From the NCBI GenBank assembly GCA_965199175.1, contig OZ240684.1, positions 1,058,337-1,122,336 of the forward strand: a DNA stretch of 64,000 nucleotides. Reading direction: 5' to 3'. The notes beneath the pieces are model-generated. The model saw only the letters and a program-made list of their open reading frames with translations, had not been told where the DNA came from and did not search any database. Origin of the DNA: Alphaproteobacteria bacterium. GTDB taxonomy: Bacteria; Pseudomonadota; Alphaproteobacteria; G963923945. This document shows positions 866-45,079 of the stretch, one piece after another (position 1 is the first letter of the stretch; each line of letters starts with the position of its first letter). The position numbers and the translations under genes were made by a program.

Positions 866-1062
866 TCAAGCTGAGGTTCTAAAACCCGGCCAAGCGGAAT
901 TTTCTGTATTTTCTGTTTCGGCACATCCTGAAGAGGTGAATAAAACCTTGACGTTGCGGAGGGATACAAACATATACTATTTGTAATTTTCTGGCCTGGC
1001 ATCTTCATTGACGACGGATATTCATCAACTCTGTCAAAGTCATAAAATCCTCGAAGATTACA

Positions 1063-3351: not shown

Positions 3352-3493
3352 TCTCCGGGTTCAGAAACCCGGGACTCATGATCTGAATATGCACCAACAC
3401 CATAGGGAGGGAATCAATCAACAAAACAAACAAAATATCAATAACAGCCCCAACCATCACCCGAAAACCAGAATTACAAGGAAAGGAAATATC

Positions 3494-4585
3494 ATGGCTG
3501 AAATACGAATCGAGGGACGCGAAGTCAAAATGGGGAAAAAAGATGGAAATAATATATTCGACGCCGGACATTTATATCTGGTTTATGTCGATGACGATGG
3601 CAAGGAAACTATTATCGGCGGGGGACCAAGTGATAATCCATTGACCAATGTAAACGCCACTCTTGATGTCATAATAGATTTTCCAATCCAGCTTTCACAA
3701 GAGAAATGGGACGGGAAAGACATAGAGGTCAGACGTCAAAAACGAGGAAGCATTACTCTTGATTTGGGCGACCGAGACCCAGAAGAAGTTTGGCAAGAAA
3801 TGCTGGTTGCTGCGAAAAAAATTGGTGATGCGAAAATTGATTACGATATACGTGGCCCCAATAGCAATACTCTGATTGCCGCCGTGCTCAATCATGTTGG
3901 AATTACGAACCTCAAGCTGCTGCCCCCAGTGGAAAGAGTCGATGGAAGCTGGGTTAATGCCCCCTATCCCGGTACTCGTCACGAAACCGTTACAGAGCTA
4001 ATGGAAAAAGCCGAGTTATCGCCCCCCCAGGGCCAGGACAACCAGCAAAACCCGGAAACCGGTAGAGATCAGCAGTTCCCAAAAAGAAAACAGCCCAGTC
4101 TATCAGACAAAGAATCCTTCCTTGATCTGAGACCCCGCTTACCGGCTGGACCAATACCGGCAGAACAGCAGAAGACAAGAATCACCAGGCCAGAACCACA
4201 TCCCGACAAGACACTCGACAATCCTGAGAACATCTTTCTTGCTGAACAGGAGAGCCGGGCCCGACTGCAGCAAGCATTGGCACAAATCCAAAATCCCACC
4301 AATGATCTCAACATGATTAGGCAAAACGAAACCGGACAAAACAAGCCGCTCAGTCAACCGGAACAAAAACCAGTATCTGATCCTCAGCGTGCTGAATTCT
4401 TCAGACGACAAAGGGAGATACAGCAAAAACGCAAACACATGCTCGACCCCAACCAGCCATCTCTGCTCAATCTGGCACCTCCGGGTTCTGAACTGGCCCG
4501 GATTCTTGAGGAGAGAAAACAGAAACTGGCAAAGGAAAAACGGAAATCGCTGCGCGCCAACACCAACAATACTGCTGTTGCCTGA
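3494..4585 (+). CDS. Hypothetical protein with ~190-aa N-terminal globular domain and Q/P/K-rich low-complexity C-terminus
   Basis: ATG at 3494 follows AGGAAAGGAAAT (Shine-Dalgarno-like); the ORF track gives 3389-4585. The C-terminal 165 aa are duplicated at window positions 1-497. Confidence 0.55.
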   Translation: MAEIRIEGREVKMGKKDGNNIFDAGHLYLVYVDDDGKETIIGGGPSDNPLTNVNATLDVIIDFPIQLSQEKWDGKDIEVRRQKRGSITLDLGDRDPEEVWQEMLVAAKKIGDAKIDYDIRGPNSNTLIAAVLNHVGITNLKLLPPVERVDGSWVNAPYPGTRHETVTELMEKAELSPPQGQDNQQNPETGRDQQFPKRKQPSLSDKESFLDLRPRLPAGPIPAEQQKTRITRPEPHPDKTLDNPENIFLAEQESRARLQQALAQIQNPTNDLNMIRQNETGQNKPLSQPEQKPVSDPQRAEFFRRQREIQQKRKHMLDPNQPSLLNLAPPGSELARILEERKQKLAKEKRKSLRANTNNTAVA

Positions 4586-4854
4586 ACCGGCCTCTTGCTG
4601 AGAACATACGATGCCGGTCGCTCGCACCGGCATCGTATAGATCGGCAACCCCCGGGAAAGACAACTCCTTGCCAACAACCAGCCCTTTTTTCTGTCAATT
4701 CCTTGCTCTGGTTCTGGTGGCCGTACCGGTACAGGGACTGACCAACCCCGGCGTCACAGGCATCATGGGTTGGACGTTCTTACTGTCTTACTGTCTTATT
4801 CTTTTATTCTCTTAGTTTTCTCTGGCTTCAACGTCACAAACCCTCAACGTCCGG

Positions 4855-4933
<79 letters not shown>

Positions 4934-5192
4934 TCAATCAAGGATTCTTCTTGTGACACGCATGATGCCATGATGATCTCTGATGCATGTGTCGGCTCAG
5001 GTACCATTCTGGCAAGCGTCTGTCCAGAAAACTTTGCAGAAAAATATCAATGTATTACCAATATCTGCAACAGGATGCCCCGAACACGGAGGGCTGGCTT
5101 GTGTGTTCATTTATTCTTAAAATGAGAGGAAGAGTTGTATCCGGTTCTGGCATTCATTGCCCGGTTTTTCTTGATCAAAGAGTTTATAAACC

Positions 5193-6776
5193 ATGCGGCA
5201 CTTCGTTCCTTCTCTGCGTGCGCTTCTTACCCTCAATGCGTTGATTGCTGTCCTGGCTCTCCTGACTGCCGCTTGTCTGGCTCTGTGGGGAGTTTATACC
5301 TTCAGCAATTACCATAAACGTGCTTCCCATTCCTACGAACAGCTTGCTCTTGCCATGAGTCTGGAGACGAATATCGGCTTTTTTCTGATCACTGAGATCA
5401 AGCAATTTGTTGATCCGGCCAACCCGTCAGCTGAGGTAACTGAAATCCAGAAAATTGAGCAAAACCTATCTGCATTGATCCAAACCATTGATGAGGAAAT
5501 CAATTTCCTGGATGGGGAAAGACAAAAAGCCGAAGAACAGGCCGAGTATCAGACTGTGCATGTCATTGACAGTCTGTTTCAAAAAATACGGCGCACCATG
5601 CGTAAGGAACGTCTTCGGGCCGAAGTATCTGACCGAGCGGAAGTCGTGCATGACGTCATCAATAACATTGTTTCTGTCGATTATCGGCGTTTGAGCGAAA
5701 TTGTTCACAGATTGGTTGCTGAGGAACGTCTCGAAGTAAAAGAGTCTGTCGAAAACATCCGTTTACTGGGCTGGAATATTCTCTTTTTCTCGATCTCGGC
5801 TATCATTTTAACGATGGTGTTTGCCCTGGGTGGGGCCATGGCGACTTACAACGTCTTGATGCGTCCGGTGGCCCAGCTTTCCAAAGGGTCTCAAGCACTG
5901 GCTCAGGGTGATCTTGACCACCGTATTACCATTGCCCGTCCTCCCGAATTTGCAGAACTTGCTGACCGCTTTAATAACATGGCACAGAGAATCTCTTTCC
6001 AGAAAACCCAGTTGGCCGACATCAATCAAGGGTTGGAAAAAATCGTTGCCGAACGAACCCAGGAACTGGCGGAGAAAATCAACCAGCTGGCTAAAATAGA
6101 CGACTCGCGGCGGCTTTTTTTCGCTAAGATTGGCCACGAATTGAGGACGCCGCTCACCGTATTGCTGGGGGAAGCCGATGTAGCATTGAGACGTCTGGAT
6201 TCCGATCCGGCTTTTTATAGGCAAGCTCTGACTCATATCGCCGCCAATGGTGAATTTTTGAAACGCCGTATCAGCGATCTGATTGGCCTTGCCCGTTCAG
6301 AGGATGGGCGAATCGTTCTCGAAAACCGGCCCATGGATTTGGAAACCGTTGTTGACGATGCGGTGCAGGTGGTTCAATCTTTTGCCCATTCCAGCGGTGT
6401 GGTTTTGCAAACCAGCCTCCCTGAACAACCGGTTGTTCTCCAGGGAGACCAGAGTTGGTTGCGACAAAGCATGCTGACATTGATCGACAATGCTGTTAAA
6501 TTTTCTCCTAAAGACGGGGTAGTTGAGATCAGGCTCGAACGTCATCAAACAGCGGCGATAATCGACGTAATTGATCAGGGTTTTGGCGTTCCGGATACTG
6601 ATCTGCATAACGTGTTTGACCCTTATTACCAATCGGCAAATGGCCGGGGCAGCGGGAGTGGTCTTGGGCTTGCCGTGGCTCATTGGGTGGCCAAACATCA
6701 CCAGGGGTGGATAAAGGCCGAAAACCTGACTCCCAGAGGTTTTCGCATTCGAATGGAGCTTCCGCTCAAGCCATGA
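5193..6776 (+). CDS. Membrane sensor histidine kinase (HAMP-HisKA-HATPase)
   Basis: N-terminal TM segment, HAMP-like region, H-box IGHELRTPL, and N/G-box motifs (DNAVKFS, GSGLGL). Confidence 0.85.
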   Translation: MRHFVPSLRALLTLNALIAVLALLTAACLALWGVYTFSNYHKRASHSYEQLALAMSLETNIGFFLITEIKQFVDPANPSAEVTEIQKIEQNLSALIQTIDEEINFLDGERQKAEEQAEYQTVHVIDSLFQKIRRTMRKERLRAEVSDRAEVVHDVINNIVSVDYRRLSEIVHRLVAEERLEVKESVENIRLLGWNILFFSISAIILTMVFALGGAMATYNVLMRPVAQLSKGSQALAQGDLDHRITIARPPEFAELADRFNNMAQRISFQKTQLADINQGLEKIVAERTQELAEKINQLAKIDDSRRLFFAKIGHELRTPLTVLLGEADVALRRLDSDPAFYRQALTHIAANGEFLKRRISDLIGLARSEDGRIVLENRPMDLETVVDDAVQVVQSFAHSSGVVLQTSLPEQPVVLQGDQSWLRQSMLTLIDNAVKFSPKDGVVEIRLERHQTAAIIDVIDQGFGVPDTDLHNVFDPYYQSANGRGSGSGLGLAVAHWVAKHHQGWIKAENLTPRGFRIRMELPLKP

Positions 6777-7855: not shown

Positions 7856-9298
7856 GTGACAACACAGAAAACAATTCTCCTGATCTCTGATGATACGGAA
7901 TTTGTAGAGGTCGCGCGTACGGCTTTCTCTCATACCGGCGATTACCGGCTTGTCCTCTGCGCAAACCGACATGCCGCGGCCAATCGTCTTGAGCAGATTG
8001 AGGCGCATCTTCTGATCGCGGATTACGATGTGGAGGATGGCCAGGGCGGCGAGGCACTTTGCGAGGCCAGAATCTCCCATCCTCAAATTCCAAGAATGCT
8101 CATCGCGAGGACAGAAATCGCGGTTACAGATTCAGATATTGTCCGCAGATGTGCTGCTTATTTGTTTTTGTTCAAGCCGGTTATGCCGACACAGTTGGAT
8201 ATTTCGGTTAAACGCGCATTGGAACTGAGCGAATTGTCACGTCGACACCGGTTGTTATCGCGTGAACTCAGAATTTCGATCGATGACGATATATTCGGTG
8301 ATGAGCACAAGATGTCGGTCAAAGGCGGCGTGTCGCAATTTGAGAAACTTGTGTTTGCCAGTCCAAAGATGGCTGAACTGGTTGAAGATGCAAGGCGGGC
8401 CGCTAAAACCGAGTTACCGGTATTGATTCATGGTGAAACAGGGACTGGAAAAGAATTGTTGGCGCGGGCGATACATTACAATTCGCAACGAATGGATTCA
8501 CCGCTTCTGGTTCAAAATTGCGGGGGGATGAGCGATGAAACTCTGCATTCTGAACTTTTTGGCCATCTGCGTGGCGCATTCACCGGAGCTGTTGCGGATC
8601 GTCTGGGTCTCTTTCGGGCCGCCGAAGGCGGGACTGTTTTTTTAGATGAAATCTCAGAAGTATCATCGAATTTTCAGGTCAGCTTGTTGAGGTTTCTCCA
8701 GGAAGGCGAAGTCAAACCTTTGGGATCGGACAAGGTGTCATACTCCAATGTTCGGATTGTCGCAGCATCCAATCGTTCACTGGAAGCAATGGTCGAATCT
8801 GGTGGCTTTCGACGAGATCTTTACTATCGGCTTAAAGGGTTTACCCTCTTAATTCCGCCGCTGCGGGAACGTCCGGAAGACATATCGGTCCTTGCTGAGT
8901 TTTTCCTTGAAAAATACGCAGGGGTTGTTGGTCGCCAGGTCATGGGTATTACGAAAGCTGCATTGGACGCGCTGGCTGCCTATAGATATCCGGGAAATGT
9001 CCGGGAGCTTGAAACAGAACTACAGAGAATGATCGCCGTTGCAGATCAAGGTGGATATATCTCGGAACGCCATTTGTCGCCTTCCATCCGACAAGCGGCA
9101 GCTGCCGGACACACCAATGGACCTCAAGCAATCGAAGGGGCCAATTTGAAAGAAATGGTAGAGAATCTAGAGCGTCAGGTGGTCAGGCAAACGCTGGAAA
9201 AAACACGATGGAATCAAAGCCAGGCGGCTCACATGCTCGGACTTTCCCGGGCTGGTTTGGCCAATAAAATCAAACGCTATAATCTTCAGGCGGAATAG
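7856..9298 (+). CDS. Sigma-54-dependent response regulator (NtrC family; HoxA/HupR-like hydrogenase activator)
   Basis: GTG start. Receiver domain, AAA+ sigma54-interaction domain (GETGTGKE, GAFTGA), and C-terminal Fis-type HTH. Confidence 0.85.
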   Translation: MTTQKTILLISDDTEFVEVARTAFSHTGDYRLVLCANRHAAANRLEQIEAHLLIADYDVEDGQGGEALCEARISHPQIPRMLIARTEIAVTDSDIVRRCAAYLFLFKPVMPTQLDISVKRALELSELSRRHRLLSRELRISIDDDIFGDEHKMSVKGGVSQFEKLVFASPKMAELVEDARRAAKTELPVLIHGETGTGKELLARAIHYNSQRMDSPLLVQNCGGMSDETLHSELFGHLRGAFTGAVADRLGLFRAAEGGTVFLDEISEVSSNFQVSLLRFLQEGEVKPLGSDKVSYSNVRIVAASNRSLEAMVESGGFRRDLYYRLKGFTLLIPPLRERPEDISVLAEFFLEKYAGVVGRQVMGITKAALDALAAYRYPGNVRELETELQRMIAVADQGGYISERHLSPSIRQAAAAGHTNGPQAIEGANLKEMVENLERQVVRQTLEKTRWNQSQAAHMLGLSRAGLANKIKRYNLQAE

Positions 9299-9308
9299 GT
9301 CGTTTCGG

Positions 9309-9542
9309 ATGTCTGAAAATGATGGGACCAAATGCTCCGGGAATATTGTGGGGTTTCCACAGTCACGCACCCGGATTGGACCTTTGCGTCCAGCAAAAGA
9401 CCTTGGTTTATCAAGGTTGTCGCGCCAAGTTGGGTCACATGGAAAAGCCGCTCAAGGTCATTGGTGCAGTCACTGCGAAGGCATTTGGTACAGCTATTTC
9501 CCGGAGTCCGAATGTCCCGTTTGTGGCAACCGGCATGGGTGA
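9309..9542 (+). CDS. Small hypothetical zinc-ribbon protein (C-terminal CxxC...CPxCG, rubredoxin-like)
   Basis: 77-aa ORF with WCSHC...CPVCGN. Three overlapping frames are open here, so coding status is uncertain. Confidence 0.3.
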   Translation: MSENDGTKCSGNIVGFPQSRTRIGPLRPAKDLGLSRLSRQVGSHGKAAQGHWCSHCEGIWYSYFPESECPVCGNRHG

Positions 9543-9672
9543 TCGAAACCTGCTCATTAACTTTACATCTGTAAAGTAAGTTGCATTGCTGTGTTGGGTA
9601 GGGAGGCTGAATTTTAGTGCCTGAATCTCATCAACTTGTTGATATTATGTATAAAAATTTTTGGACTAAAAC

Positions 9673-9689
9673 TGGCATTGTTTTTGCTT
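9673..9689 (+). promoter_or_regulatory. Sigma-54 (-24/-12) promoter upstream of hydrogenase small subunit
   Basis: TGGCATtgtttTTGCTT has GG and GC separated by exactly 10 nt and lies ~140 bp upstream of the hupS start. Two 16-bp direct repeats (aagttagcagacagaa) sit between it and the RBS. Confidence 0.6.
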
Positions 9690-9829
9690 AATATCGTGCT
9701 GTGGATCATACGGTGATTGATAATCCGTTCGAACAAGCAGATGAAAACCAAAACAAAGTTAGCAGACAGAACAAAAAAGTTAGCAGACAGAAAAAGAGAT
9801 AGAGACAGAAAAACGAAGGAGGAAAAAGA

Positions 9830-10792
9830 ATGGCTAATTTATTATGGCTCCAGGGCGGGGCCTGCTCTGGAAACACAATGTCGTTTCTGAATGCCGAGGA
9901 ACCCAGTGCCTGCGATCTTGTCACCGATTTCGGGATCAATGTTCTTTGGCAGCCGTCACTCGGCCTGGAACTCGGAGACGATGTTAAAGCGATACTGCAA
10001 AAATGTATTTCCGGTGATATCCAGCTGGATATTTTCGTTTTTGAAGGGACGGTTATTGACGCCCCCAACGGGACCGGCGAATGGAACCGGTTTTGTGGTC
10101 GGGCAATGAAAGAATGGGTCAAAGAACTTTCAGCAGCGGCTCAATTTGTTGTTGCTATTGGAGACTGTGCTACTTGGGGCGGTATTCCGGCAACCGCGCC
10201 CAATCCTTCGGATTCCAGGGGTCTGCAATTCCTGAAACGCGAGAAAGGTGGTGCCCTTGGGGAAGGGTTCACATCCAAAGCCGGCCTTCCGGTCATCAAT
10301 ATTCCGGGCTGCCCGGCTCACCCCGATTGGGTCACCCAAATTCTGGTGGCGGTTGCGACCGGACGGGCCGGAGACCTGACCCTTGATGAATTCCAGAGGC
10401 CAAAGACATTTTTCTCAAGTTTCACGCAAACTGGTTGTACTCGAAACATGCATTTTGCTTATAAAGTCTCCTCGACAGCGTTTGGCCAGCGTAAAGGCTG
10501 CCTGTTCTATGACCTTGGTTGCCGTGGGCCGATGACTCATAGCCCATGCAACCGGATTCTCTGGAACCGTCAGTCATCGAAAACTCGCGCCGGTATGCCT
10601 TGTCTGGGTTGCACGGAACCTGAGTTCCCGTTTTTTGATTTAGCACCTGGCACAGTCTTTAAAACTCAGACTGTGATGGGCGTACCCAAAGATCTGCCGA
10701 CAGGCGTGGAAAAAACTGGCTATGTAAAATTGACTGCCGCAGCCAAGGGTGCTGCCCCAGCCTGGGCTGAAAAAGACATTTTCGTCGTCTGA
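9830..10792 (+). CDS. hupS: [NiFe]-hydrogenase small subunit, no Tat signal peptide (group 2a-like HupS)
   Basis: Begins directly MANLLWLQGGACSGN. It has the conserved Cys ligands of the proximal, medial and distal FeS clusters. At 320 aa it matches cyanobacterial-type HupS length. RBS GGAGGAAAAAGA precedes the ATG. Confidence 0.9.
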   Translation: MANLLWLQGGACSGNTMSFLNAEEPSACDLVTDFGINVLWQPSLGLELGDDVKAILQKCISGDIQLDIFVFEGTVIDAPNGTGEWNRFCGRAMKEWVKELSAAAQFVVAIGDCATWGGIPATAPNPSDSRGLQFLKREKGGALGEGFTSKAGLPVINIPGCPAHPDWVTQILVAVATGRAGDLTLDEFQRPKTFFSSFTQTGCTRNMHFAYKVSSTAFGQRKGCLFYDLGCRGPMTHSPCNRILWNRQSSKTRAGMPCLGCTEPEFPFFDLAPGTVFKTQTVMGVPKDLPTGVEKTGYVKLTAAAKGAAPAWAEKDIFVV

Positions 10793-10841
10793 AGTCAGTG
10801 AACAAACAAAAGTCAGTGAACAAATAAAGGGAATTTAAACA

Positions 10842-12437
10842 ATGTCAGCAGCAGTTCAAACTCTTGATATTTCTCCTGTCGGGCGCGTTGAAGGCGACCT
10901 TGACGTTCGTGTCGATATTTCGGATGGCGTTGTAACCAATGCCTGGACAAATGCGGAAATGTTCCGCGGCTTTGAAGTCATCTTGAAAGACAAAGACCCC
11001 CAGGCTGGCCTGGTCGTCACGCCCCGCGCCTGTGGCATCTGTGGTGCGTCGCATCTGACATGTGCTGCCTGGGCGTTGGATACAGCCTGGAGCACGACTG
11101 TCCCAAGAAATGCCATTTTGGCCCGCAACCTTGGTCAGATTGTCGAATCGCTTCAGTCTTTGCCCAGGCATCATTACGGCTTGTTCATGATTGATTACAC
11201 GAACAAAAATTACGCCAATTCGGTTTTTTTCGAAGAAGCCGTCAAGCGCTATGCGCCGTTTACCGGTACTTCCTACGAAGCTGGCGTGACGATTTCCGGC
11301 AGACCGGTTGAGATTTATGCTCTGCTCGGTGGGCAGTGGCCGCACTCATCTTACATGGTGCCAGGTGGCGTGATGTGTGCGCCGACTTTGACGGATGTGA
11401 CCCGGGCCTGGTCGATCCTTGAACACTTTCGACGTAACTGGATTGAACCATTATGGCTTGGATGTTCGATGGAGCGGTATGAAAGCATTCAGACATTAGA
11501 AGATTTTGAGGCATGGCTTGATGAACGTCCGGAACATGCGCGTTCAGACCTCGGCCTTTATTGGCGAATGTCCAAAGATATCGGTCTGGATCAATACGGC
11601 AAAGGCCATGGCAAATTCATCACCTGGGGTTATCTGCCCCATGAGGACAAATATCAAAACCCAACCATTGATGCACGCAGCGGCGCGGTCATCATGAAGG
11701 CCGGGGTATATGATGGTGCTTCTGACAGCTTCCAACCGATGGAACAGTCGTTGGCCCGGGAAGATATGATCCATTCCTGGTACGATGAAGGCAATGATAT
11801 TCACCCTTTTGACCGCACAACCAATCCGATTATGAAGAATGAGATTGATCCGGATGGAAAATATTCCTGGTGCACTTCGGTTCGCCACACTGAAAACGGT
11901 CGCCTTGAGGCGGGTCCACTTGCGCGTCGCCTGGTTTCTGGAGGACCGGGTCAGGATTTCCAGCATTCGGACGGCCTGATCCTGGATATGTATCGGAAGA
12001 TGGGTGGTGCTTCGATTATGCTGCGCCATTTCGCACGGATGCATGAACTGTGTATTCTCTACCGCGAAGCTGAGCGTATTCTGCGTGAATTCAAGCTCAA
12101 TGACGAATGGTATATCAAACCAACCGAGAAAGATGGGCGTGGTTGGGGTGCTACGGAGGCAATTCGTGGTGCCCTCTGCCACTGGATTGATGTTGAAGGC
12201 GGTAAGATCAAGAACTATCAGATCATCGCGCCGACCACCTGGAATGTTGGTCCTCGCGCTGAGAACGGCGAACGGGGACCGATCGAAGAGGCACTCATTG
12301 GGACGCCGATTGCCAACTCTTCGGATCCGGTCGAAGTCGGCCATGTGTGTCGGTCCTATGACAGCTGTTTGGTCTGCACCGTCCATGCTCATGATGGCAA
12401 GACAGGCGAAGAGCTTGCGCGGTTTCGTACGGCGTAA
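10842..12437 (+). CDS. hupL: [NiFe]-hydrogenase large subunit with C-terminal extension
   Basis: N-terminal RACGICGASH and C-terminal DSCLVCTVH motifs ligate the Ni-Fe site. About 16 residues follow the final His, which is a substrate for endopeptidase cleavage. 531 aa. Confidence 0.9.
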   Translation: MSAAVQTLDISPVGRVEGDLDVRVDISDGVVTNAWTNAEMFRGFEVILKDKDPQAGLVVTPRACGICGASHLTCAAWALDTAWSTTVPRNAILARNLGQIVESLQSLPRHHYGLFMIDYTNKNYANSVFFEEAVKRYAPFTGTSYEAGVTISGRPVEIYALLGGQWPHSSYMVPGGVMCAPTLTDVTRAWSILEHFRRNWIEPLWLGCSMERYESIQTLEDFEAWLDERPEHARSDLGLYWRMSKDIGLDQYGKGHGKFITWGYLPHEDKYQNPTIDARSGAVIMKAGVYDGASDSFQPMEQSLAREDMIHSWYDEGNDIHPFDRTTNPIMKNEIDPDGKYSWCTSVRHTENGRLEAGPLARRLVSGGPGQDFQHSDGLILDMYRKMGGASIMLRHFARMHELCILYREAERILREFKLNDEWYIKPTEKDGRGWGATEAIRGALCHWIDVEGGKIKNYQIIAPTTWNVGPRAENGERGPIEEALIGTPIANSSDPVEVGHVCRSYDSCLVCTVHAHDGKTGEELARFRTA

Positions 12438-12507
12438 CCAATAAGGGTATGGAGAGTTCCAAACAAAATCCTGATAAAAAATCCGTAGAAACAAAATTGG
12501 GTTAGGT

Positions 12508-12897
12508 GTGGTGGCTTCGATGGTTGGTGATATTTCTGTTGCGGCGGAGTCTTCGGCTTATCGGCAACGTTACGGGGTTTTGCCTTCCGAGGCCGACCAC
12601 GCAACCCTCATGAAGATGATTGAGGATTTATTTAAGGAGGGTCTGGAGACTCAGATTGAGCCATTTCCGAAAACTGACCGGGAATTTGCGGCGATTCTTG
12701 ATGATCTGCGGATGCTTACGCCAGACCAGCTTCGGGAAAAACTGGTGCTTTCCGGATGGCTTCTCAAGCCCCATGGTGAAGATCAGATGCGTTGTCAGGA
12801 ATGCATGTATTTTCTTGTCCATCGTCGCTGGTGCGATCTTCCGGAGTTGAATTTGCCTGCGGAACCGGAATGGTGGTGCAGATTGTGGAGAATTTAG
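12508..12897 (+). CDS. Hypothetical protein, paralog 1, conserved C-terminal 4-Cys motif (hydrogenase-cluster associated)
   Basis: C-terminus QECMYFLVHRRWCDLPELNLPAEPEWWCRLWRI. Paralogous to the next gene. Confidence 0.5.
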   Translation: MVASMVGDISVAAESSAYRQRYGVLPSEADHATLMKMIEDLFKEGLETQIEPFPKTDREFAAILDDLRMLTPDQLREKLVLSGWLLKPHGEDQMRCQECMYFLVHRRWCDLPELNLPAEPEWWCRLWRI

Positions 12898-12907
12898 GAG
12901 AGAGGAA

Positions 12908-13240
12908 GTGTCTGACCAAGCGTCAAGTCCTGAAGACGATGCGTTGCGCGACCATATCGCGGAGACATTGTCTTCGGGGATAGAAACCGAAGTCTGGCCA
13001 CGCGCCGAAACTTCGGAGATGGTTGAGAATATTGTCAAGCGCTTACAAACCGAAGCCAGAGACGACCTGGACAAGAAGCTGATCATCGGCGGTTTCACCG
13101 ACCACATCATCGAAGCCGAAGGATTGGAACAACCCTGTGAGACTTGTATGTATTACTTGGTGCATCGGAAATTTTGCGAATTACCGGAGTTGATGTTGCC
13201 AGTCGAACCGCATTGGTCTTGCAGACTTTGGCGCATTTGA
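12908..13240 (+). CDS. Hypothetical protein, paralog 2, conserved C-terminal 4-Cys motif
   Basis: C-terminus CETCMYYLVHRKFCELPELMLPVEPHWSCRLWRI aligns residue-for-residue with the previous ORF. GTG start. Confidence 0.5.
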   Translation: MSDQASSPEDDALRDHIAETLSSGIETEVWPRAETSEMVENIVKRLQTEARDDLDKKLIIGGFTDHIIEAEGLEQPCETCMYYLVHRKFCELPELMLPVEPHWSCRLWRI

Positions 13241-13716
13241 ATCCGGCGACAGTCATCATCGGTTGCGGCAACCCGAACCGAAGCGATGATGGAGTCGGCC
13301 CCTATGTCGTTTCCTTGCTTCGTGATCGGGATCTTGGTGATCATGTCTCGCTTTATGATGGCGGGACCGATGGTATGGGTGTCATGTACCGGCTGCGGGG
13401 CTTTGAGCGTCTGGTCATCATTGACGCCCGCATGCCTCAGGGGACTCCGGGCGCATTATATGAAGTCCCCGGAGACGTTCTGGAAACGCGTCCGCCACAA
13501 AGTCTCAATCTTCATGATTTCAGATGGGATCATGCTCTTTATGTCGGCCGCCAAATATATGGCACGGCGTTTCCGGATGATGTATCGGTGTTTTTAATTG
13601 AAGCAGCCAATCTTGATCTGGGATTGGAGATCAGCCCACACATTCAGGCGACGGCCTTGAAAGTTGCAGCGCAGATTGAGCATATGGTGACCGCGCGTGA
13701 TGCGGCGGCTATTTAG
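13237..13716 (+). CDS. hupD: Hydrogenase maturation endopeptidase (HybD/HupD family)
   Basis: Motif VIIGCGNPNRSDDGVGPYVV matches the GxGNxxxxDDGxG signature. The proposed TTG start overlaps the upstream stop. An ATG at 13144 in the track would overlap the previous gene by ~100 nt. Confidence 0.75.
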   Translation: MNPATVIIGCGNPNRSDDGVGPYVVSLLRDRDLGDHVSLYDGGTDGMGVMYRLRGFERLVIIDARMPQGTPGALYEVPGDVLETRPPQSLNLHDFRWDHALYVGRQIYGTAFPDDVSVFLIEAANLDLGLEISPHIQATALKVAAQIEHMVTARDAAAI

Positions 13717-13719
13717 GGA

Positions 13720-14031
13720 GTGGCGATGGCGGTGCGTATTGGCGTCCGGGATGGGTCTGTGTATCTCAATCGGCAGACCGTTGAGACGTATTTCCGGCAT
13801 ATTGACGCTGTAATCATTTTGATCCGTGACCAACAGTTGCAGATTCTGCCGGTTCGGCAGATGGCTGCGGGGGGGTGTTTGCTAAAAGTCCGTAATGCGG
13901 TTGGGGACCGGGTGGCGAACAGCCCGGATGTCTTCGCCGAGCACGGGCTTTCGGCTTGGCGTGATGATGATATTGAGGCAGTTTGGTCGGCGACTCTCGG
14001 TGCTCTTGTTGCAGAGATATCCGCATACTAA
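13720..14031 (+). CDS. Hypothetical protein (hydrogenase cluster)
   Basis: 103-aa ORF. RBS GGGAG lies 6 nt upstream of the ATG, immediately after hupD. Confidence 0.35.
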   Translation: MAMAVRIGVRDGSVYLNRQTVETYFRHIDAVIILIRDQQLQILPVRQMAAGGCLLKVRNAVGDRVANSPDVFAEHGLSAWRDDDIEAVWSATLGALVAEISAY

Positions 14032-14132
14032 GTTTACATATTGAAAAACGACTAGACATAATTCGTATAAACGGGTTTACTTTCCTGAGCGTTCATTGTT
14101 AGCGGATCGAAATCCGTTTACGGGAGGAGAGT

Positions 14133-15122
14133 ATGGTCGCGCGCAGCCGTACCGAAGATGAGGTGAATGCGGCCTTAAAGACGGTCGAAGGAAGCGGCGC
14201 ATCGACGCAGGAAAAAGCCGAGATGCTTATGGAAATCGCCATGGGCCTCCAACAAAAGCCCAAAGCTCCGGGTGATCTTCATGCTGCGGTCACTCTCTAT
14301 AAAAGGAGTCTGGAGCAAGCCAGAGACGCAGATTCGCTGCTTCAGGCACGTATTCGTGCGCGCATGGCCACTGCTATGATGGCCATACCTGGCGATACGA
14401 CGCATTTTCTGGAAAGCGCCCGGGGCGAATTGCAGGACGCCCTGGAGATATTACAAACCGAAGGCCTTGATGCAGAAATCGCAGAAGCCGAAATGAATTT
14501 GGGCCTGGTCTTGCAAAACCTTGCAGAAGTTGGCCAGGGCCGCATTCAAGATGCCATATCGGCCTATCAACGTGCCTTAAGGGTCTTTGATAAAGCCAGT
14601 CATCCTGTAGAATTCGCCATTCTGCAAAATAACATCGCAACTGCTTTCCTTTCGATTCCTTTCACTCAGGAGAGTGGTAAGATGCGGGAGGCTCTGGCCG
14701 TGCAGGCATTTGAAGAGGGTTTGAAAGTGGTCAATCTGATTGACCACCCCCGTGAATACGCCATGTTACAGAATAATCTTGGCAACGCTCTTCAGTACGC
14801 TTCGTCAAGCCATCGGGTTGAAAATGGTTTTCGGGCACTGGAGGCTTATGACGAAGCCTTGAAAGTGAGAACATCCCGCGATATGCCGGATGAATATGCC
14901 AACACCATCGCCAATAAGGCAAATTGCCTGGTCAACCTACCTGATGACCCAGAAAACCCTGACACCGGCAATCAGCATCACTTGTCAATAGCCCAGACTC
15001 TCTACAAGGAAGCGCATACGATTTTCGAGAATACCGGAGCACTCGACAAAGCGGCAATGGTGGCCGAAGCCCTGGCGAACCTATCTTCCGAAACCCGTTT
15101 CGGCCAACCCATCGTTCATTGA
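14133..15122 (+). CDS. TPR-like repeat protein (hydrogenase cluster)
   Basis: 329 aa, helical, with repeated A/L/Y-rich ~34-aa units (ALxxYxxAL patterns). Confidence 0.55.
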   Translation: MVARSRTEDEVNAALKTVEGSGASTQEKAEMLMEIAMGLQQKPKAPGDLHAAVTLYKRSLEQARDADSLLQARIRARMATAMMAIPGDTTHFLESARGELQDALEILQTEGLDAEIAEAEMNLGLVLQNLAEVGQGRIQDAISAYQRALRVFDKASHPVEFAILQNNIATAFLSIPFTQESGKMREALAVQAFEEGLKVVNLIDHPREYAMLQNNLGNALQYASSSHRVENGFRALEAYDEALKVRTSRDMPDEYANTIANKANCLVNLPDDPENPDTGNQHHLSIAQTLYKEAHTIFENTGALDKAAMVAEALANLSSETRFGQPIVH

Positions 15123-15346
15123 AGAAAAAAGCCACAGAAGGAGACCTGGCAATGGAACCTCTCATATTCATCCTGGCATTGGTGCTCGGGGTTGCTGCAT
15201 CTATCGGTGCCGGCGTGTTATCGGGTCTTTGGATCGGCAAAGACGCTCTTGGCGGCGAACTTGCCGCCTTTATGGGCGGGCTTTACGGCCTCATGTCCGG
15301 CATCGTCGGCGTCAGCGCCGGTTTGGCCGCTCTATTACTGGTTTAA
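15119..15346 (+). CDS. Small membrane protein (2 predicted TM helices)
   Basis: 75 aa with Gly/Ala-rich hydrophobic segments. Overlaps the upstream stop. Confidence 0.4.
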   Translation: MKKKATEGDLAMEPLIFILALVLGVAASIGAGVLSGLWIGKDALGGELAAFMGGLYGLMSGIVGVSAGLAALLLV

Positions 15347-15357
15347 GGGGGAGTCGG

Positions 15358-15579
15358 ATGTTGAGTATAGCACTGAATTCAGCAAAATTGTTCTTCGCGG
15401 GAAAACTCTTCCAGGATAACAAGAAAGTCTTGCGTCAATTTGCCATTGGTGCCGGGGCTGGGGGAATTGCGACTGTTATCGTTGCTCAATTCACGCCGCT
15501 GTGGCTCGCCGCGATGGCTGGCGGTGCTGTTTGCGGCTTTCTTCAACCAATTTTGTTTAAAGATCTGAAATACGCGTGA
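15358..15579 (+). CDS. Small membrane protein (2 predicted TM helices)
   Basis: ATG follows GGGGGAG. 73 aa with two hydrophobic stretches. Confidence 0.4.
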   Translation: MLSIALNSAKLFFAGKLFQDNKKVLRQFAIGAGAGGIATVIVAQFTPLWLAAMAGGAVCGFLQPILFKDLKYA

Positions 15580-15583
15580 TCCG

Positions 15584-16459
15584 ATGTCTGATGGTCCCGC
15601 AGCGCAGGAAGGCCGCTCGCTTGATGATCTCCTGAAAGATCTATCGGCTCTTGAAGCCCTGGCGAACGGATGGGAGAGTGCTGAACGCAACGGTGCTCAG
15701 GCCCGTGCCGAGGCCGTTGATGCTCTGAATGCGGAGGCTTTCCGTCGACTGATCAGAGTTCTCCGGGATACACCGGGCATGGAAAGTGCCTTACGTAGCG
15801 CTGCTGGTGACGAAGTTGTTTATGCGGTCTTGCGCCGTCATGGAATTCTAAAACCATCGCTTTTTGAGCGCGTTGACACAGCCCTCGACAGCGTACGTCC
15901 CATGCTGGTCAATCATGGTGGAAATGCCGAACTGGTCGCCGTCGATGGTCACTGTGCCACCATCCGGTTTCTCGGCAACTGTGATGGCTGCCCGGCCTCC
16001 GCCCTGACATTCTACGCAGGAGTAAAAAAAGCGATTCAAGACCAGGTTCCGGAAATTAGCGAGATCAAGCAAGCTAAAGGACTGGGGGGAGGCAGTGGAG
16101 GCGACAGTCAAACGACCCATTTCATATCACCATTTGCTACCTATCAGAGTGAAGGCTGGAGCTATGCCTGTGGCCTGCATGAGCTTGCCGATGGTGCTAC
16201 CACTATCCTGGATATCGAAGAACACTCAATTTTGCTGTCCCGCTTCGGTGATCGGATAACATGTTTTGAAAATGCTTGCGCGCATATGGGAATGGCGATG
16301 GATGGCGGCGAAATCAGCGATGGTTTGATCACCTGTCCTCATCATGAATTCAGGTACTCCCTGGAAACCGGAGAATGTCTGACCGCCCCGGAGGTCCAGC
16401 TGCAACCCCATGGCGTTCGCGTTGTCAGCGATATGGTCGAGGTACGGTTGACGCAATGA
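15584..16459 (+). CDS. NifU-like plus Rieske [2Fe-2S] fusion protein (mycobacterial HucE/HhyE-like hydrogenase-associated FeS protein)
   Basis: NifU C-terminal-type segment LVNHGGNAELVAVDGHCATIRFLGNCDGCPAS, followed by Rieske motifs CAH...CPHH. Confidence 0.7.
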   Translation: MSDGPAAQEGRSLDDLLKDLSALEALANGWESAERNGAQARAEAVDALNAEAFRRLIRVLRDTPGMESALRSAAGDEVVYAVLRRHGILKPSLFERVDTALDSVRPMLVNHGGNAELVAVDGHCATIRFLGNCDGCPASALTFYAGVKKAIQDQVPEISEIKQAKGLGGGSGGDSQTTHFISPFATYQSEGWSYACGLHELADGATTILDIEEHSILLSRFGDRITCFENACAHMGMAMDGGEISDGLITCPHHEFRYSLETGECLTAPEVQLQPHGVRVVSDMVEVRLTQ

Positions 16460-17640
16460 AGGCAATGATGCTCTCCTCCTTCCAGCCGCTCAAGGCACCA
16501 GGAACTGTGAAAGCAGGCCGATTATTGCTGGATGAAGGCGGACCGGAAGTCATCCTTGGCTGGCGGCAGGGGGAATTGGCGGCTCCTCTTACACCAAGTC
16601 CCTCGACTATGTTCGGACCGCGGGGAGTATGCCTGCACCCTGATGGCTCATTTTGGGCTTCTGATACCGGACATCATCGCCTTCTGGGATGGCACACAAC
16701 ACCCTATCATGATAATGCGGCAGCCGATATCGTCATCGGCCAGCCGGATTTCCTGAGAGAAGGGCGCAATGCCAAGGCAGAGCCCAGTGCCGCAACACTG
16801 AACATGCCGACCGGCGTGGCGGCCTGGGGCAATGGTCTGGCGGTTGCCGATGCTTGGAATCACCGGATTTTGTTGTGGAAAACAACTCCCCGGCAAAGCG
16901 GTCAGGCCGCCGATATCATTTTGGGACAGGAGACCAATATTTCAATCGACGCCAACCGGGGTGCCGACCAACCGACCAAAGCCAGCCTGCACTGGCCTTG
17001 CGGGGTCTCGGTCATTGATGGAAAATTGGTTGTTTGCGACACCGGAAACCGTCGGGTTCTGATCTGGGATCATCCCAAAAAAACCGGGCAACCGGCTGAT
17101 TTGGTTCTGGGTCAATATGATTTTACGACCCGGGACGAGAATGCCGGTGGTCCTGTTTCGGCAATGTCTATGCGGTGGCCACATATGGCCACCTCCTGGT
17201 CTGGGCGTTTTGTTGTAGCTGATGCGGGCAATAACCGAATCATGGTCTGGAACCACATGCCCAGTCACAACGGTGCGTCATCAACATTCATTCTTGGCCA
17301 ACATGATGCGGTTGGATGCGACCATAATCTTGCTGATTATTATCCATGTGCGGCCTCGGTCAACATGCCTTATGCGGCTATCGCCGCAGGGCAAAGGCTG
17401 GTGGTCGCCGATACGGCGAATTCGCGGTTGATTGGATGGTCCAGGGCGGTCACAGGAAGTGATGCTGACCGGCTGACCGGTCAACCGGATTTTGCGGCCA
17501 AAGGGGATAATCGTTGGGGTATGGCGGAACGCGATAGCCTATGCTGGCCTTATGGCCTCTCGGTATTGGACGATTGGATTGCAATCGCAGATAGCGGGAA
17601 CAACCGCGTGCTTTTGTGGCGGGTCGCCGATGCCGGGTGA
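16456..17640 (+). CDS. NHL-repeat beta-propeller protein (hydrogenase-associated)
   Basis: The ATG overlaps the upstream stop (ATGA). At least six repeats of the DxGNxRIxxW/D type (ADAWNHRILLW, CDTGNRRVLIWD, ADAGNNRIMVWN, ADTANSRLIGW, ADSGNNRVLLW). Confidence 0.7.
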   Translation: MKAMMLSSFQPLKAPGTVKAGRLLLDEGGPEVILGWRQGELAAPLTPSPSTMFGPRGVCLHPDGSFWASDTGHHRLLGWHTTPYHDNAAADIVIGQPDFLREGRNAKAEPSAATLNMPTGVAAWGNGLAVADAWNHRILLWKTTPRQSGQAADIILGQETNISIDANRGADQPTKASLHWPCGVSVIDGKLVVCDTGNRRVLIWDHPKKTGQPADLVLGQYDFTTRDENAGGPVSAMSMRWPHMATSWSGRFVVADAGNNRIMVWNHMPSHNGASSTFILGQHDAVGCDHNLADYYPCAASVNMPYAAIAAGQRLVVADTANSRLIGWSRAVTGSDADRLTGQPDFAAKGDNRWGMAERDSLCWPYGLSVLDDWIAIADSGNNRVLLWRVADAG

Positions 17641-19996
17641 ACGTCATAAAATCCGTGGCCAGGTTCAAGGGGTCGGGTTTCGGCCAACCGTTTGGCGGGT
17701 TGCGCGTGAACTTGGCTTAACCGGCAATGTTCGCAATACCGGTGACAGCGTGGAGGTGCTTCTATGGGGAAAAAACAGCGATAGTTTCGTCGATCAATTA
17801 CGCCTCCAACTCCCGCCTCTGGCCAAAATCGATGACTGGGAGCGTGCACCTGTGAGCGGACCAGCACCCGAAACCTTCTCGATTGAGGCATCTTTGTCCG
17901 ATCATGTAAAAACTTCCGTGACCCCGGATACCAATATATGCGCCGACTGCCTGGCAGAGATCCGTGACCCCTTTGAAAGACGCTACCGCTATCCATTCGC
18001 GAATTGCACCAATTGCGGACCACGATTTTCAATCATTGAGAGTGTTCCTTACGACCGGGACGGGACAACCATGCGGTCATTTGACCTTTGTCCCGATTGC
18101 GCGGTTGAATACCGGGACCCGGCTGATCGGCGATTTCACGCTCAACCGGTCGCTTGCCATGCTTGCGGACCGCGCGCCTGGTTGGAAAAACTTGGTGGCG
18201 GTACCGTCAATTCCGAATCTTTTTCGATGATGGATGATGTTGATGCTGCAGGTGGTGCATTGATGCGCGGATTCATCCTCGCCATCAAAGGTATTGGCGG
18301 ATTTCATCTGGCCTGTGACGCCACCAAGCCAGACGTCGTGAATGCTTTAAGAGAGCGCAAGAATCGAAAGGGCAAAGCGTTTGCGCTGATGGCCCGTGAT
18401 CTCGATGTTATCAGTCAATATGCGGCGGTATCAGATGAGGAAGCAGCCCTCCTGAGAGGACCCGAAGCACCGATTGTTCTTCTAAGGGCCCAGGGTAAAC
18501 CATTACCTGAGGCGATCGCGCCGGGCCTTGATCGACTCGGCTTTATGCTGCCTCACACGCCTCTGCATCATTTGCTGCTGAGCCGGATGAAACGCCCGGT
18601 AGTCATGACCTCGGGAAACCTGTCCGGACAACCGCAATGCACCCGGAATACCGATGCTCGTAGGCGTTTGACAGGAATCGCTGACTTCGCACTCATGCAT
18701 AACCGCACCATCGCAAACCGCATTGATGATAGTGTGGTTCGGGTCGATATGGGGCGAATGCGGATGTTACGGCGGGCTCGGGGTTATACACCCAAGGCAA
18801 TCCCTCTGCCCAAAGGCTTTTCCCAAAACCATAAGATTTTAGCTCTTGGTGCCGAACTCAAAAACGCTTTCAGCCTTGTCAAAGAGGGTCAGGCAATCCT
18901 CAGCCAACATATGGGAGATATGGAAGACTTCTCCACCCAGGCCGATATCGACCACACTCTTGCTCTCTATCAATCCTTGTATCGGTTTTCGCCGGATCTG
19001 ATCGCCGTTGACAGCCATCCGGAATATCTTTCGACCAAGCGCGGCTACGCAATGGCCCGGGACTTGCCCATCATTGAGGTACAGCATCATCATGCTCATA
19101 TCGCCAGCTGCCTGGTTGAAAATGGCTACGCCCTCAATGCACCGCCGGTATTGGGAATCGCTTTAGATGGTCTTGGTTTGGGTGATGATGGAACCTTTTG
19201 GGGCGGCGAATTTCTGATCGCTGATTACCAGGGGTACCAACGCGCTGGCTGTTTGAAACCGGTCGCTCTGCCAGGGGGCGATTCGGCTGTGCGCGAACCT
19301 TGGCGGAATGCCTATGCGCATCTGATGGCCGAAATGGGCTGGGCGGAATTTGAAATGAATTTTTCCGATCTCGAACTGTATCATAAGCTCAACGCCACAC
19401 CGCGCAAAACTCTTGATGCGATGATATTGTCGAATACCAATGCGCCGCTATCATCATCCTGTGGCCGCCTGTTCGATGCTGCGGCTACGATGATCGGTAT
19501 TGCCTGGGAGCGCCAAGACTATGAAGGCCAGGCAGCCATGCAGTTTGAAGCCATCCTGGATGTTGATGCGCTCAATGAACCTGATGACCATGCCTATCCA
19601 TTCGCGATCCCGCTGTTGGGTGGTGCCGGCCTGCCCTATATTGAGCCGCTGGCAGTATGGCGGGCAATGCTGGGTGATTTAATTTTGGGGACACCCGTCG
19701 GCGTTATGTCGGCCCGGTTTCATCGCGGTCTTGCCAAAGCCATTGCGGCAATGACAAACCGGATCACGTCGAAAACTGAAATTGATACAGTCGTCCTCAC
19801 CGGCGGTTGTTTCCAGAATGCCACTTTGTTCAGGCTGGTGAGCACATATTTAAAAGATATAGGCTTGACGCTTTTCAGCCATTCGAAAATCCCCGCCAAT
19901 GATGGGGGACTTGCTCTCGGCCAGGCCGCAATCGCTTTGGCCCTCAACTCAAAAGGAGACAACCATGTGCCTCGGGATACCCGGACAGATCATTGA
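17630..19996 (+). CDS. hypF: Carbamoyltransferase HypF
   Basis: Acylphosphatase N-terminus (VQGVGFRP), two Zn-finger CxxC pairs, YrdC and Kae1-like domains. Internal start at 17630; the ORF track extends to 17492. Confidence 0.9.
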   Translation: MPGERHKIRGQVQGVGFRPTVWRVARELGLTGNVRNTGDSVEVLLWGKNSDSFVDQLRLQLPPLAKIDDWERAPVSGPAPETFSIEASLSDHVKTSVTPDTNICADCLAEIRDPFERRYRYPFANCTNCGPRFSIIESVPYDRDGTTMRSFDLCPDCAVEYRDPADRRFHAQPVACHACGPRAWLEKLGGGTVNSESFSMMDDVDAAGGALMRGFILAIKGIGGFHLACDATKPDVVNALRERKNRKGKAFALMARDLDVISQYAAVSDEEAALLRGPEAPIVLLRAQGKPLPEAIAPGLDRLGFMLPHTPLHHLLLSRMKRPVVMTSGNLSGQPQCTRNTDARRRLTGIADFALMHNRTIANRIDDSVVRVDMGRMRMLRRARGYTPKAIPLPKGFSQNHKILALGAELKNAFSLVKEGQAILSQHMGDMEDFSTQADIDHTLALYQSLYRFSPDLIAVDSHPEYLSTKRGYAMARDLPIIEVQHHHAHIASCLVENGYALNAPPVLGIALDGLGLGDDGTFWGGEFLIADYQGYQRAGCLKPVALPGGDSAVREPWRNAYAHLMAEMGWAEFEMNFSDLELYHKLNATPRKTLDAMILSNTNAPLSSSCGRLFDAAATMIGIAWERQDYEGQAAMQFEAILDVDALNEPDDHAYPFAIPLLGGAGLPYIEPLAVWRAMLGDLILGTPVGVMSARFHRGLAKAIAAMTNRITSKTEIDTVVLTGGCFQNATLFRLVSTYLKDIGLTLFSHSKIPANDGGLALGQAAIALALNSKGDNHVPRDTRTDH

Positions 19997-20258
19997 AATC
20001 TCTGATCCAGCCAAGAAACTCGCGCTGGTGGACGTATCTGGCGTTCGCCGTGAAGTGAATGTTGCCTGCATCGCCGAAAATAATCCGATTGACGACCTGA
20101 TTGGTGCCTGGGCGTTGATCCATGTCGGGTTTGCGATGTCTCGCATCAATGAGGAGGAAGCCGCCAAGACTCTGGAAGTCCTCAGGATGCTGGGCGAAGC
20201 GCAAGAAGAAATCGAAGCGATGCGCCAAAGCCAGCAGATGCTGGAGCAGACATCATGA
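19965..20258 (+). CDS. hypC: Hydrogenase maturation factor HypC
   Basis: N-terminal MCLGIPGQI signature; 97 aa. Confidence 0.85.
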   Translation: MCLGIPGQIIEISDPAKKLALVDVSGVRREVNVACIAENNPIDDLIGAWALIHVGFAMSRINEEEAAKTLEVLRMLGEAQEEIEAMRQSQQMLEQTS

Positions 20259-22434: not shown

Positions 22435-22441
22435 GATATAT

Positions 22442-43766: not shown

Positions 43767-43787
43767 TATGCCAATCTGGATGATCTG

Positions 43788-45069: not shown

Positions 45070-45079
45070 AGCGTAAAGG

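Follow-up and report, generated by a model that had tools for sequence, protein, structure and literature searches.

A stretch of 64,000 nucleotides (nt) from the genome of an alphaproteobacterium (GenBank assembly GCA_965199175.1, contig OZ240684.1, positions 1,058,337 to 1,122,336 of the forward strand), called the window here and numbered from its first letter, contains a hydrogenase module of about 16 kb with all its genes on one strand. The module starts with the gene of a sigma-54-dependent regulator and a CxxC-containing open reading frame (ORF) of 77 amino acids (aa), continues with hucS and hucL, which encode the small and the large hydrogenase subunit, with the genes of two four-cysteine proteins (A and B) and a protease, and with those of a 103-aa protein, a TPR-like protein, a 73-aa protein, HucE and an NHL-repeat protein, and ends with hypFCDE, a NicO-like permease gene, a short hypA and hypB (Table 1). 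Across 80 related loci fetched from alpha- and gammaproteobacterial genomes, nearly every one of these genes recurs, in unchanged order, in 60-80. Positions 7856-24215 very probably form a self-contained group 2a [NiFe] uptake hydrogenase module of the proteobacterial/cyanobacterial HupSL sub-clade, sister to the sub-clade that includes the mycobacterial enzyme Huc. An initial annotation of this DNA, which had singled out the two structural genes and the protease, turned out to be essentially correct in its observation and in its interpretation.

Structural genes and the large-subunit protease

The small subunit begins with MANLLWLQGGACSGN, and an AGGAGG ribosome-binding site lies directly 5′ of its start. 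It had been described as lacking a twin-arginine translocation (Tat) leader, and this was confirmed in two ways. No earlier in-frame start was present in the ORF listing, and because ORFs were listed from the first possible start codon (ATG, GTG or TTG) after a stop, a longer form with a hidden Tat leader is impossible. Alignment further demonstrated that the RRSFLK Tat leader of HoxK and HyaA, about 45 residues long, is missing here as it is in M. smegmatis HucS and in the Runella protein; the HucS chain in the PDB begins at the same position (ASVLWFQGGACSGN). When all PDB chains were searched, the small subunit matched M. smegmatis HucS with E=5e-157. The aligned cluster ligands displayed two changes, an Asn in place of the second Cys of the proximal cluster (ACSGN) and a Gln in place of the His of the distal cluster (QTGC), and these changes as well as all aligned ligand Cys are identical to those of HucS. 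The same positions read GCGGC and HHGC in group 2b, CTCC and HDKC in group 1, and GACGGD and HQGC in group 2c. Substitutions of the ACSGN/QTGC type yield three [3Fe-4S] clusters in Huc (PMC10017518). Since each of the three clusters has only three Cys ligands, they are predicted to be [3Fe-4S] and high-potential in the small subunit of the window too. The alignment also showed that Lys212, Tyr229 and Tyr301, the residues of HucS that hold menaquinone (PMC10017518), are all kept.

The large subunit carries both NiFe-binding motifs intact, L1 as RACGICGASH and L2 as DSCLVCTVH, and the terminal His of L2 is followed by AHDGKTGEELARFRTA, that is, by 16 residues, in a protein of 531 aa; the initial annotation had given about 16. 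A tail of 16 residues is kept across the examined group 2a sequences with intact C-termini. The Ser of L2 (DSC) is common to every group 2a sequence of the set whose C-terminus is included, other groups having Pro at this position; six references taken from Table S2 of PMC7784904 end before L2 and were left out of this comparison. The search of all PDB chains returned M. smegmatis HucL (7UTD/7UUR/7UUS) with E=2e-181, while the best non-Huc chain reached 2.5e-61. In the alignment with HucL, Glu15, Ile64, Leu112, Ser104 and Arg443 were kept together with the position of His166. Glu15, Ile64 and Leu112 are the gas-channel residues that were mutated in the Huc simulations (PMC10017518).

The endopeptidase gene matched the HycI family of Pfam (PF01750, E=6e-9) and, above the cut-off, NCBIfam TIGR00072 (E=3e-33), and its product shows the motifs GNPNRSDDGVG, IIDA and LHDF. 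The longest ORF starts at 13144, but the gene more probably starts at the TTG at 13237, where the sequence ATTTGA combines this codon with the stop of the gene before it. A HybD/HupD-type protease had been announced behind the large subunit; the gene is indeed there and ends at 13716, but it does not follow directly, as two ORFs that had been overlooked (12508-12897 and 12908-13240), those of proteins A and B, lie in between.

Table 1. Features of the hydrogenase module, with positions counted from the first letter of the window
Feature	Position	Strand	Basis
Sigma-54-dependent response regulator, HupR/HoxA-like (receiver + AAA+ + Fis-type helix-turn-helix)	7856..9298	+	Pfam, HoxA identity
Conserved 77-aa ORF, C-terminus GHWCSHCEGIWYSYFPESECPVCGNRHG (CxxC-x12-CxxC)	9309..9542	+	Between regulator and hucS; tblastn conservation
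Sigma-54 type -24/-12 promoter TGGCATtgtttTTGCT (TGGCAT-N5-TTGCT)	9673..9688	+	157 nt upstream of small-subunit start
Small subunit HucS/HupS, 320 aa, Tat-less	9830..10792	+	PDB HucS match; Pfam Oxidored_q6 and NiFe_hyd_SSU_C
Large subunit HucL/HupL, 531 aa, 16-aa C-terminal extension	10842..12437	+	PDB HucL match, group 2a clade, L1/L2 motifs
Four-cysteine protein A, 129 aa, C-terminus CQECMYFLVHRRWCDLPELNLPAEPEWWCRLWRI	12508..12897	+	Kept in 80/80 loci
Four-cysteine protein B, 110 aa, C-terminus ...CRLWRI	12908..13240	+	Paralogue of A, 36% identity
Large-subunit C-terminal endopeptidase, HupD/HybD family	13237..13716	+	TIGR00072, Pfam HycI (PF01750)
Conserved hypothetical protein, 103 aa	13720..14031	+	Same position in 69/80 loci; no family match (Pfam, NCBIfam)
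TPR-like protein, 329 aa	14133..15122	+	Pfam TPR_12 E=2e-7; 76/80 loci
Small hydrophobic protein, about 73 aa	15358..15579 (inside ORF 15229-15579, start inferred)	+	61/80 loci
HucE-type NifU + Rieske [2Fe-2S] protein	15584..16459	+	Pfam NifU E=3.5e-19, Rieske E=6e-14
NHL-repeat protein	16456..17640 (longest ORF from 16375; start inferred at ATGA overlap)	+	Pfam NHL E=5e-26
hypF	17630-19996	+	Pfam HypF domains
hypC	19965-20258	+	Maturation set
hypD	20255-21394	+	Maturation set
hypE	21391-22434	+	Maturation set
NicO-like nickel permease	22442-23158	+	Pfam NicO
Short hypA	23158-23400	+	Pfam HypA
hypB	23397-24215	+	Pfam cobW/HypB

Placement of the enzyme in group 2a

The large subunit was compared by tblastn with a plasmid collection, in which alphaproteobacterial plasmid copies from Octadecabacter, Roseovarius, Sphingopyxis alaskensis (84%), Novosphingobium, Mesorhizobium and Bradyrhizobium were 77-87% identical to it. 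Identity was 70-72% with the enzymes of Nostoc, A. ferrooxidans and Nitrospira, 53-54% with those of Runella, Thermus and Mycobacterium (53% for HucL), 32-38% with group 2b and 2c enzymes (33-36% for HoxC and HupV, 37% for the Ideonella 2c enzyme) and 24-29% with groups 1 and 3. The curated Table S2 of PMC7784904 lists as group 2a HucL the proteins of S. alaskensis, N. pentaromativorans, M. acidiphila and R. lutimaris, as well as those of Hyphomicrobium and Mesorhizobium species, and the loci of these species match the window at 79-86%.

A phylogeny of the large subunit had been set beforehand as the test of its group 2a assignment, together with a check of the L1 and L2 signatures, and both came out in favour of it. 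Neighbour-joining trees were built with labelled references that came from annotated records (from C. necator HoxG, HoxC, HofG and HoxH; from Rhizobium and Azospirillum HupV; an Ideonella 2c enzyme with an adjoining diguanylate cyclase; HyaB and HybC of E. coli; a group 1h enzyme of Streptomycetaceae), to which HucL from the PDB alignment and the six Table S2 sequences were added. With 100 bootstraps, and with 300 in a tree where distances were capped and clades counted explicitly, the large subunit fell inside the group 2a clade with 100% support, together with M. smegmatis HucL, Nostoc and Trichodesmium HupL and the enzymes of A. ferrooxidans, N. moscoviensis and S. alaskensis. Groups 1c, 1d and 1h stood apart from it. 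Within group 2a, it belonged to a sub-clade, also supported at 100%, with other Proteobacteria, A. ferrooxidans, N. moscoviensis and cyanobacterial HupL, and the other sub-clade contained M. smegmatis Huc, Chloroflexus and Gemmatimonas.

A small subunit without a Tat signal and an adjoining HoxA-like sigma-54 regulator are also what would be expected of a regulatory H2 sensor of group 2b (HoxBC/HupUV type), which would signal to that regulator and conserve no energy, and the large subunit does share 33-36% of its residues with HoxC and HupV. This explanation is nevertheless highly improbable, since the 2b sensors HoxC and HupV formed a separate clade with 99-100% support, their small-subunit ligands differ from those of the window (GCGGC and HHGC against ACSGN and QTGC), and the window includes neither a HoxJ/HupT kinase nor a second, energy-conserving hydrogenase to be regulated. 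In addition, the 2b references all stop at ...CTVH without an extension, whereas the large subunit of the window has its 16-residue tail and a dedicated protease. The initial annotation had taken this last combination, with the Tat-less small subunit, as the mark that distinguishes group 2a from the 2b sensors, and had called the features of the enzyme mixed. By itself the combination serves for this distinction alone, because the Ideonella representative of group 2c likewise has an extended large subunit and a protease. Nor are the features mixed, because a Tat-less small subunit together with an extended large subunit and a protease is the standard arrangement of group 2a. The Ideonella enzyme, with its Tat-less start, its extension, its downstream protease and 37% identity, raises in turn the idea of a putative sensory hydrogenase of type 2c, to which we give almost no credence: the large subunit groups with 2a at 100% and not with 2c, the 2c ligands (GACGGD and HQGC) depart from the Huc pattern, and no diguanylate cyclase or phosphodiesterase gene lies downstream, unlike in Ideonella.

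A third alternative concerns the role of the enzyme and not its group. Nostoc and Trichodesmium HupL, the former 70% identical, share the 100% sub-clade with the large subunit, and a group 2a enzyme might recycle the H2 made by nitrogenase, the classical role of cyanobacterial HupSL, instead of scavenging external H2. Such a role appears improbable here, as the same sub-clade also holds the external-H2 oxidisers A. ferrooxidans, N. moscoviensis and S. alaskensis (PMC9381531) and the module is found on plasmids of non-diazotrophic marine heterotrophs; moreover, no nif gene was detected among the window ORFs that were scanned with Pfam and NCBIfam, a scan that several ORFs did not enter.

Several points weigh against assigning the module to group 2a with the properties of Huc. 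The trees are neighbour-joining trees of a small, hand-assembled set without 2d or 2e, and six of the references are only about 390 residues long. In M. smegmatis, the octamer and the quinone stalk are built by HucM, a DUF1641 protein of 18 kDa whose gene directly precedes hucS (PMC10017518); sequence-level searches of the window and of related loci did not detect it. A PDB search over all chains (E<=10) gave no HucM match for proteins A and B or for the concatenated 86-aa, 103-aa, 116-aa and TPR ORFs, and a tblastn search of the window and the related loci with the DUF1641 protein of M. intracellulare matched only its own mycobacterial locus. Because HucM, the quinone conduit in M. smegmatis, is absent, the route of the quinone to the HucS-type site is left unexplained, and the octameric stalked architecture of Huc is not expected. 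Finally, affinity, O2 insensitivity and electron acceptor are properties that would be carried over to this enzyme by orthology.

Regulatory, accessory and maturation genes

The regulator matched Pfam Sigma54_activat (E=1e-61), HTH_8 and, weakly, Response_reg, and shares 38% of its residues with C. necator HoxA in a full-length alignment. In 71 of the 80 related loci its gene likewise precedes hucS, and Asp56, the putative site of phosphorylation, is present in 48 of 53 orthologues. The promoter listed in Table 1 lies between this gene and hucS. In 26 of 78 related loci, hucS is preceded at a distance of 67-113 nt by the strict sigma-54 consensus, for which 0.008 occurrences per 450 nt would be expected by chance, and looser GG-N10-GC elements aligned at the position of the promoter in the related loci L002 and L003. 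A receiver, a sigma-54 AAA+ domain and a helix-turn-helix in one protein next to a -24/-12 hydrogenase promoter are the features of HoxA/HupR-type regulation, and the regulator is predicted to activate this promoter. The HoxA-type control proposed by the initial annotation thus applies to the output side only, because no HoxJ/HupT-type kinase, HoxBC/HupUV sensor or second hydrogenase is present in the window and a HAMP histidine kinase gene at 5193-6776 lies outside the conserved module. This kinase was considered as a partner of the regulator and rejected, as it is absent from the closest relative found (L001) and gave only weak kinase-domain matches (27-30%), at other positions, in a few loci. 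The hucS leader itself (9752-9818) is purine/A-rich and contains a tandem direct repeat of 21 nt (AACAAAGTTAGCAGACAGAAC / AAAAAAGTTAGCAGACAGAAA) in addition to an incomplete third copy. The leader in L001 is A-rich and repetitive too, but different, and L002 and L003 have no such leader.

The 77-aa ORF between the regulator and hucS was found by tblastn at the same position in 75 loci, with E values from 1e-11 to 1e-37, and is unannotated in the records of S. alaskensis (L091:8652-8849) and Octadecabacter (L090:12586-12777). It has no Pfam family and no detected sequence similarity to HypA. An 86-aa ORF at 9319-9579 was discarded as a gene in this region: it matches only L001, the conserved gene is in another frame (9309-9542), and it is probably spurious.

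Proteins A and B, encoded between hucL and the protease, accompany the hydrogenase in 80 of 80 proteobacterial-type loci. Their C-termini share an invariant motif with four Cys, C-x2-C-M-Y-[YF]-x7-C-x-LPEL-x2-P-x4-W-x-C-x-LWRI. Pfam, NCBIfam and the PDB gave no match for protein A. Protein B had 779 database homologues; among the 120 listed, all source-given names were 'hypothetical' or 'uncharacterized' and no Pfam domain was recorded. Neither protein was found in the group 2a clusters of Runella (Bacteroidota), which has nothing in their place, or of mycobacteria, which have HucM. The spacing of the conserved residues, C-x2-C...C...W-x-C-x2-W, resembles what we take to be the HiPIP motif. 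Membership of the HiPIP family was nevertheless not supported, as the Pfam family (PF01355) matched one of 17 C-terminal domains with E=0.82 and a profile search of the PDB returned no HiPIP. An AlphaFold2 model of a four-cysteine protein, built on an alignment of 29 sequences, had a mean pLDDT of 56, with values below 50 in the Cys domain. PHG067, the proposed acceptor of the group 1h enzyme of C. necator, was discarded as a relative too, being a 220-aa DUF5947 protein that is not comparable.

With regard to the genes that follow the protease, the TPR-like protein clears the TPR_12 cut-off when scored as a whole but not in any one stretch, and the 73-aa protein has an annotated counterpart in S. 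alaskensis, a hypothetical protein of 73 aa with 51% identity. In M. smegmatis, Huc depends on HucE for its activity (PMC6883350). An NHL-repeat gene often accompanies hucL in putative operons, and hucE, NHL-repeat and hyp genes are typical of the surroundings of group 2a enzymes (PMC7784904). The starts of the maturation genes were inferred from overlaps and homologues. The set is collinear with that on the S. alaskensis plasmid, with 53-69% identity in alignments that cover most of each protein; the exception is hypB, aligned over its first 29 residues only because the S. alaskensis locus ends there. HypA (ORF 23143-23400) is unusually short, 80-85 aa, and matches positions 1-69 of the 112 in the Pfam profile. 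CxxC pairs are missing, and with them the zinc module of canonical HypA; the records of S. alaskensis and Octadecabacter list the same short form. In their spacing, the Cys pairs of the 77-aa ORF (CxxC-x12-CxxC) recall the zinc site that this HypA lacks. No cytochrome b gene was found among the cluster ORFs scanned with Pfam and NCBIfam.

Several observations bear on the mobility of the module, which several genera carry on plasmids that are conjugative or mobilizable. The module has a G+C content of 0.52-0.55, compared with about 0.48 in the left flank and 0.46-0.49 directly downstream. The large-subunit protein of L001 is 97% identical and the DNA 79% identical to the window; this DNA similarity begins at 7658, and everything to the left of that position is different. 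An independent acquisition or relocation of the hydrogenase module would be in line with this, and by its plasmid occurrence, its G+C shift and this limit of the similarity the module behaves as a mobile unit. Left of 7658, the window contains two large ORFs without a Pfam family (1063-3351 and 3389-4585), a tRNA-Met (4857-4933) and the HAMP histidine kinase gene, the counterpart region of L001 being 1-6598. In this genome the cluster is presumably chromosomal, judged partly from its flanks, which include a prophage and an aspartate-semialdehyde-dehydrogenase-like gene. The latter (ORF 25299-26390) encloses an ARAGORN call of a tRNA-His (90 nt, anticodon ATG, 26297-26386, plus strand), probably a false positive because Rfam does not confirm it. 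It is followed by a 481-aa ORF without a Pfam family (26538-27983, plus strand), upstream of a hexapeptide-repeat transferase gene. The phage region is a Mu-like prophage or phage-derived block at about 38000-55500 on the plus strand, with a G+C content of 0.54-0.58 against about 0.48-0.50 nearby. It begins beside a tRNA-Gln (37999-38072, minus strand) and encodes Mu gp27-like and Mu portal proteins, a fusion of a Mu F-like head protein with a PBECR2 nuclease domain, and tail tube, tape measure, tail collar and GpJ-like tip proteins.

Electron transfer, physiological role and comparison with known systems

From these data, a working model of the module can be proposed. The sequence itself shows to which family the enzyme belongs, which genes accompany it, that the motifs are kept and that a promoter consensus is present, whereas cluster type, quinone reduction, affinity, O2 insensitivity and physiological role are predicted from orthologues. 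The sigma-54 enhancer-binding response regulator would activate the -24/-12 promoter ahead of the structural genes, HypABCDEF and the nickel permease would assemble the NiFe(CN)2CO site, and the endopeptidase would cut the 16-residue tail of the large subunit once nickel has been inserted. Without a Tat leader on the small subunit, the enzyme would be held at the cytoplasmic side. There, H2 would be split at the NiFe site and the electrons would pass along the three clusters, predicted to be high-potential, and reach a quinone, presumably ubiquinone, bound close to the distal cluster, or an accessory iron-sulfur protein. They would then enter the aerobic respiratory chain and support mixotrophic use of trace H2.

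How the electrons leave the enzyme is where the module may depart from Huc. A gene adjoining hupLS in A. ferrooxidans has been named 'putative HiPIP', and its product or the Rieske protein was proposed there as a relay to ubiquinone (PMC7735108). We infer that this 'putative HiPIP' corresponds to the four-cysteine proteins of the window. Electron relay or assembly of the enzyme may be the task of these proteins, of the NifU-Rieske protein or of both. The idea can be taken a step further, in a form that is possible but rather doubtful. An uncharacterised coupling apparatus would replace the HucM quinone stalk in the proteobacterial branch of group 2a, and the 77-aa CxxC gene might supply the zinc module in trans to the short HypA. 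Candidate parts of the apparatus are proteins A and B and possibly the 73-aa hydrophobic protein, which would bind metal clusters and link HucSL to the ubiquinone pool, and it perhaps extends to the cyanobacterial/Nitrospira branch of group 2a. A relay to ubiquinone through accessory proteins had already been suggested for A. ferrooxidans (PMC7735108).

Group 2a hydrogenases, a well-known type of enzyme that tolerates oxygen and faces the cytoplasm, help to control the fluxes of H2 in air and sea and support mixotrophic growth. Sub-atmospheric H2 uptake by A. ferrooxidans (PMC7784904) and consumption of atmospheric H2 by N. moscoviensis (PMC9381531) have been described, and the uncultured source organism of the window is probably able to use trace H2 as well. 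The qualification 'possibly high-affinity' in the initial annotation is reasonable by orthology, given identities of 84% to the enzyme of S. alaskensis and of about 72% to those of A. ferrooxidans and N. moscoviensis. Close relatives already provide examples of this type of cluster, with functional studies, and an extra copy is conceptually nothing new. The interest that remains is in a proteobacterial clade that keeps the quinone site of Huc without HucM and carries conserved, unnamed Cys-rich partners, one of them missing from the annotations of the two relatives checked. Understanding these partners would explain the exit of electrons from the enzyme in bacteria that use ubiquinone.

Comparison with known systems sets the module apart from the membrane-bound hydrogenases of group 1, whose features are missing from the window: there is no Tat leader and no cytochrome b gene in the cluster, and identity is 24-29%. 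The sensor HoxBC of C. necator (group 2b) resembles the window in its Tat-less small subunit, and HoxA has the same architecture as the regulator, to which it is 38% identical. The C. necator system differs in that HoxC has no extension and needs no protease, in its cluster ligands, in the presence of the HoxJ kinase and in its separate clade. The likeness to M. smegmatis Huc goes much deeper and includes the Tat-less small subunit, the processed C-terminus of the large subunit, identical three-Cys ligand sets for all three clusters, and HucE, NHL-repeat and hyp genes in the cluster. Contrary to this, L1 reads RICGICGGSH in Huc and RACGICGASH in the window, the mycobacterial cluster has an AraC-type regulator where the window has a sigma-54 regulator, proteins A and B, the 77-aa CxxC ORF and the 103-aa and 73-aa proteins are found in the window but not in the mycobacterial cluster, and the two enzymes belong to different sub-clades of group 2a. 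Hup of A. ferrooxidans is closer, with about 72% identity over the first 390 residues or so and an identical L1 region (RACGICGASHLTCAAWALDTAW). Its operon as published, compared by description only, has hupR, a NifU/Rieske protein and the 'putative HiPIP' beside hupLS, in agreement with the gene content of the window (PMC7735108). The closest of these systems is the plasmid cluster of S. alaskensis RB2256, whose large and small subunits are 84% and 91% identical to those of the window. From the sigma-54 regulator to hypB the two clusters are collinear gene for gene and have in common proteins A and B, the 103-aa, TPR and 73-aa proteins, the NifU-Rieske and NHL proteins, the nickel permease, the short HypA and the 77-aa ORF. 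In the S. alaskensis cluster, hypC and hypD are separated by an additional gene, for a SIS-domain protein, and the cluster is located on a 28.5-kb mobilizable plasmid, whereas that of the window is presumably part of a chromosome. The hydrogenase of S. alaskensis draws H2 down to sub-atmospheric levels during growth (PMC10305171).

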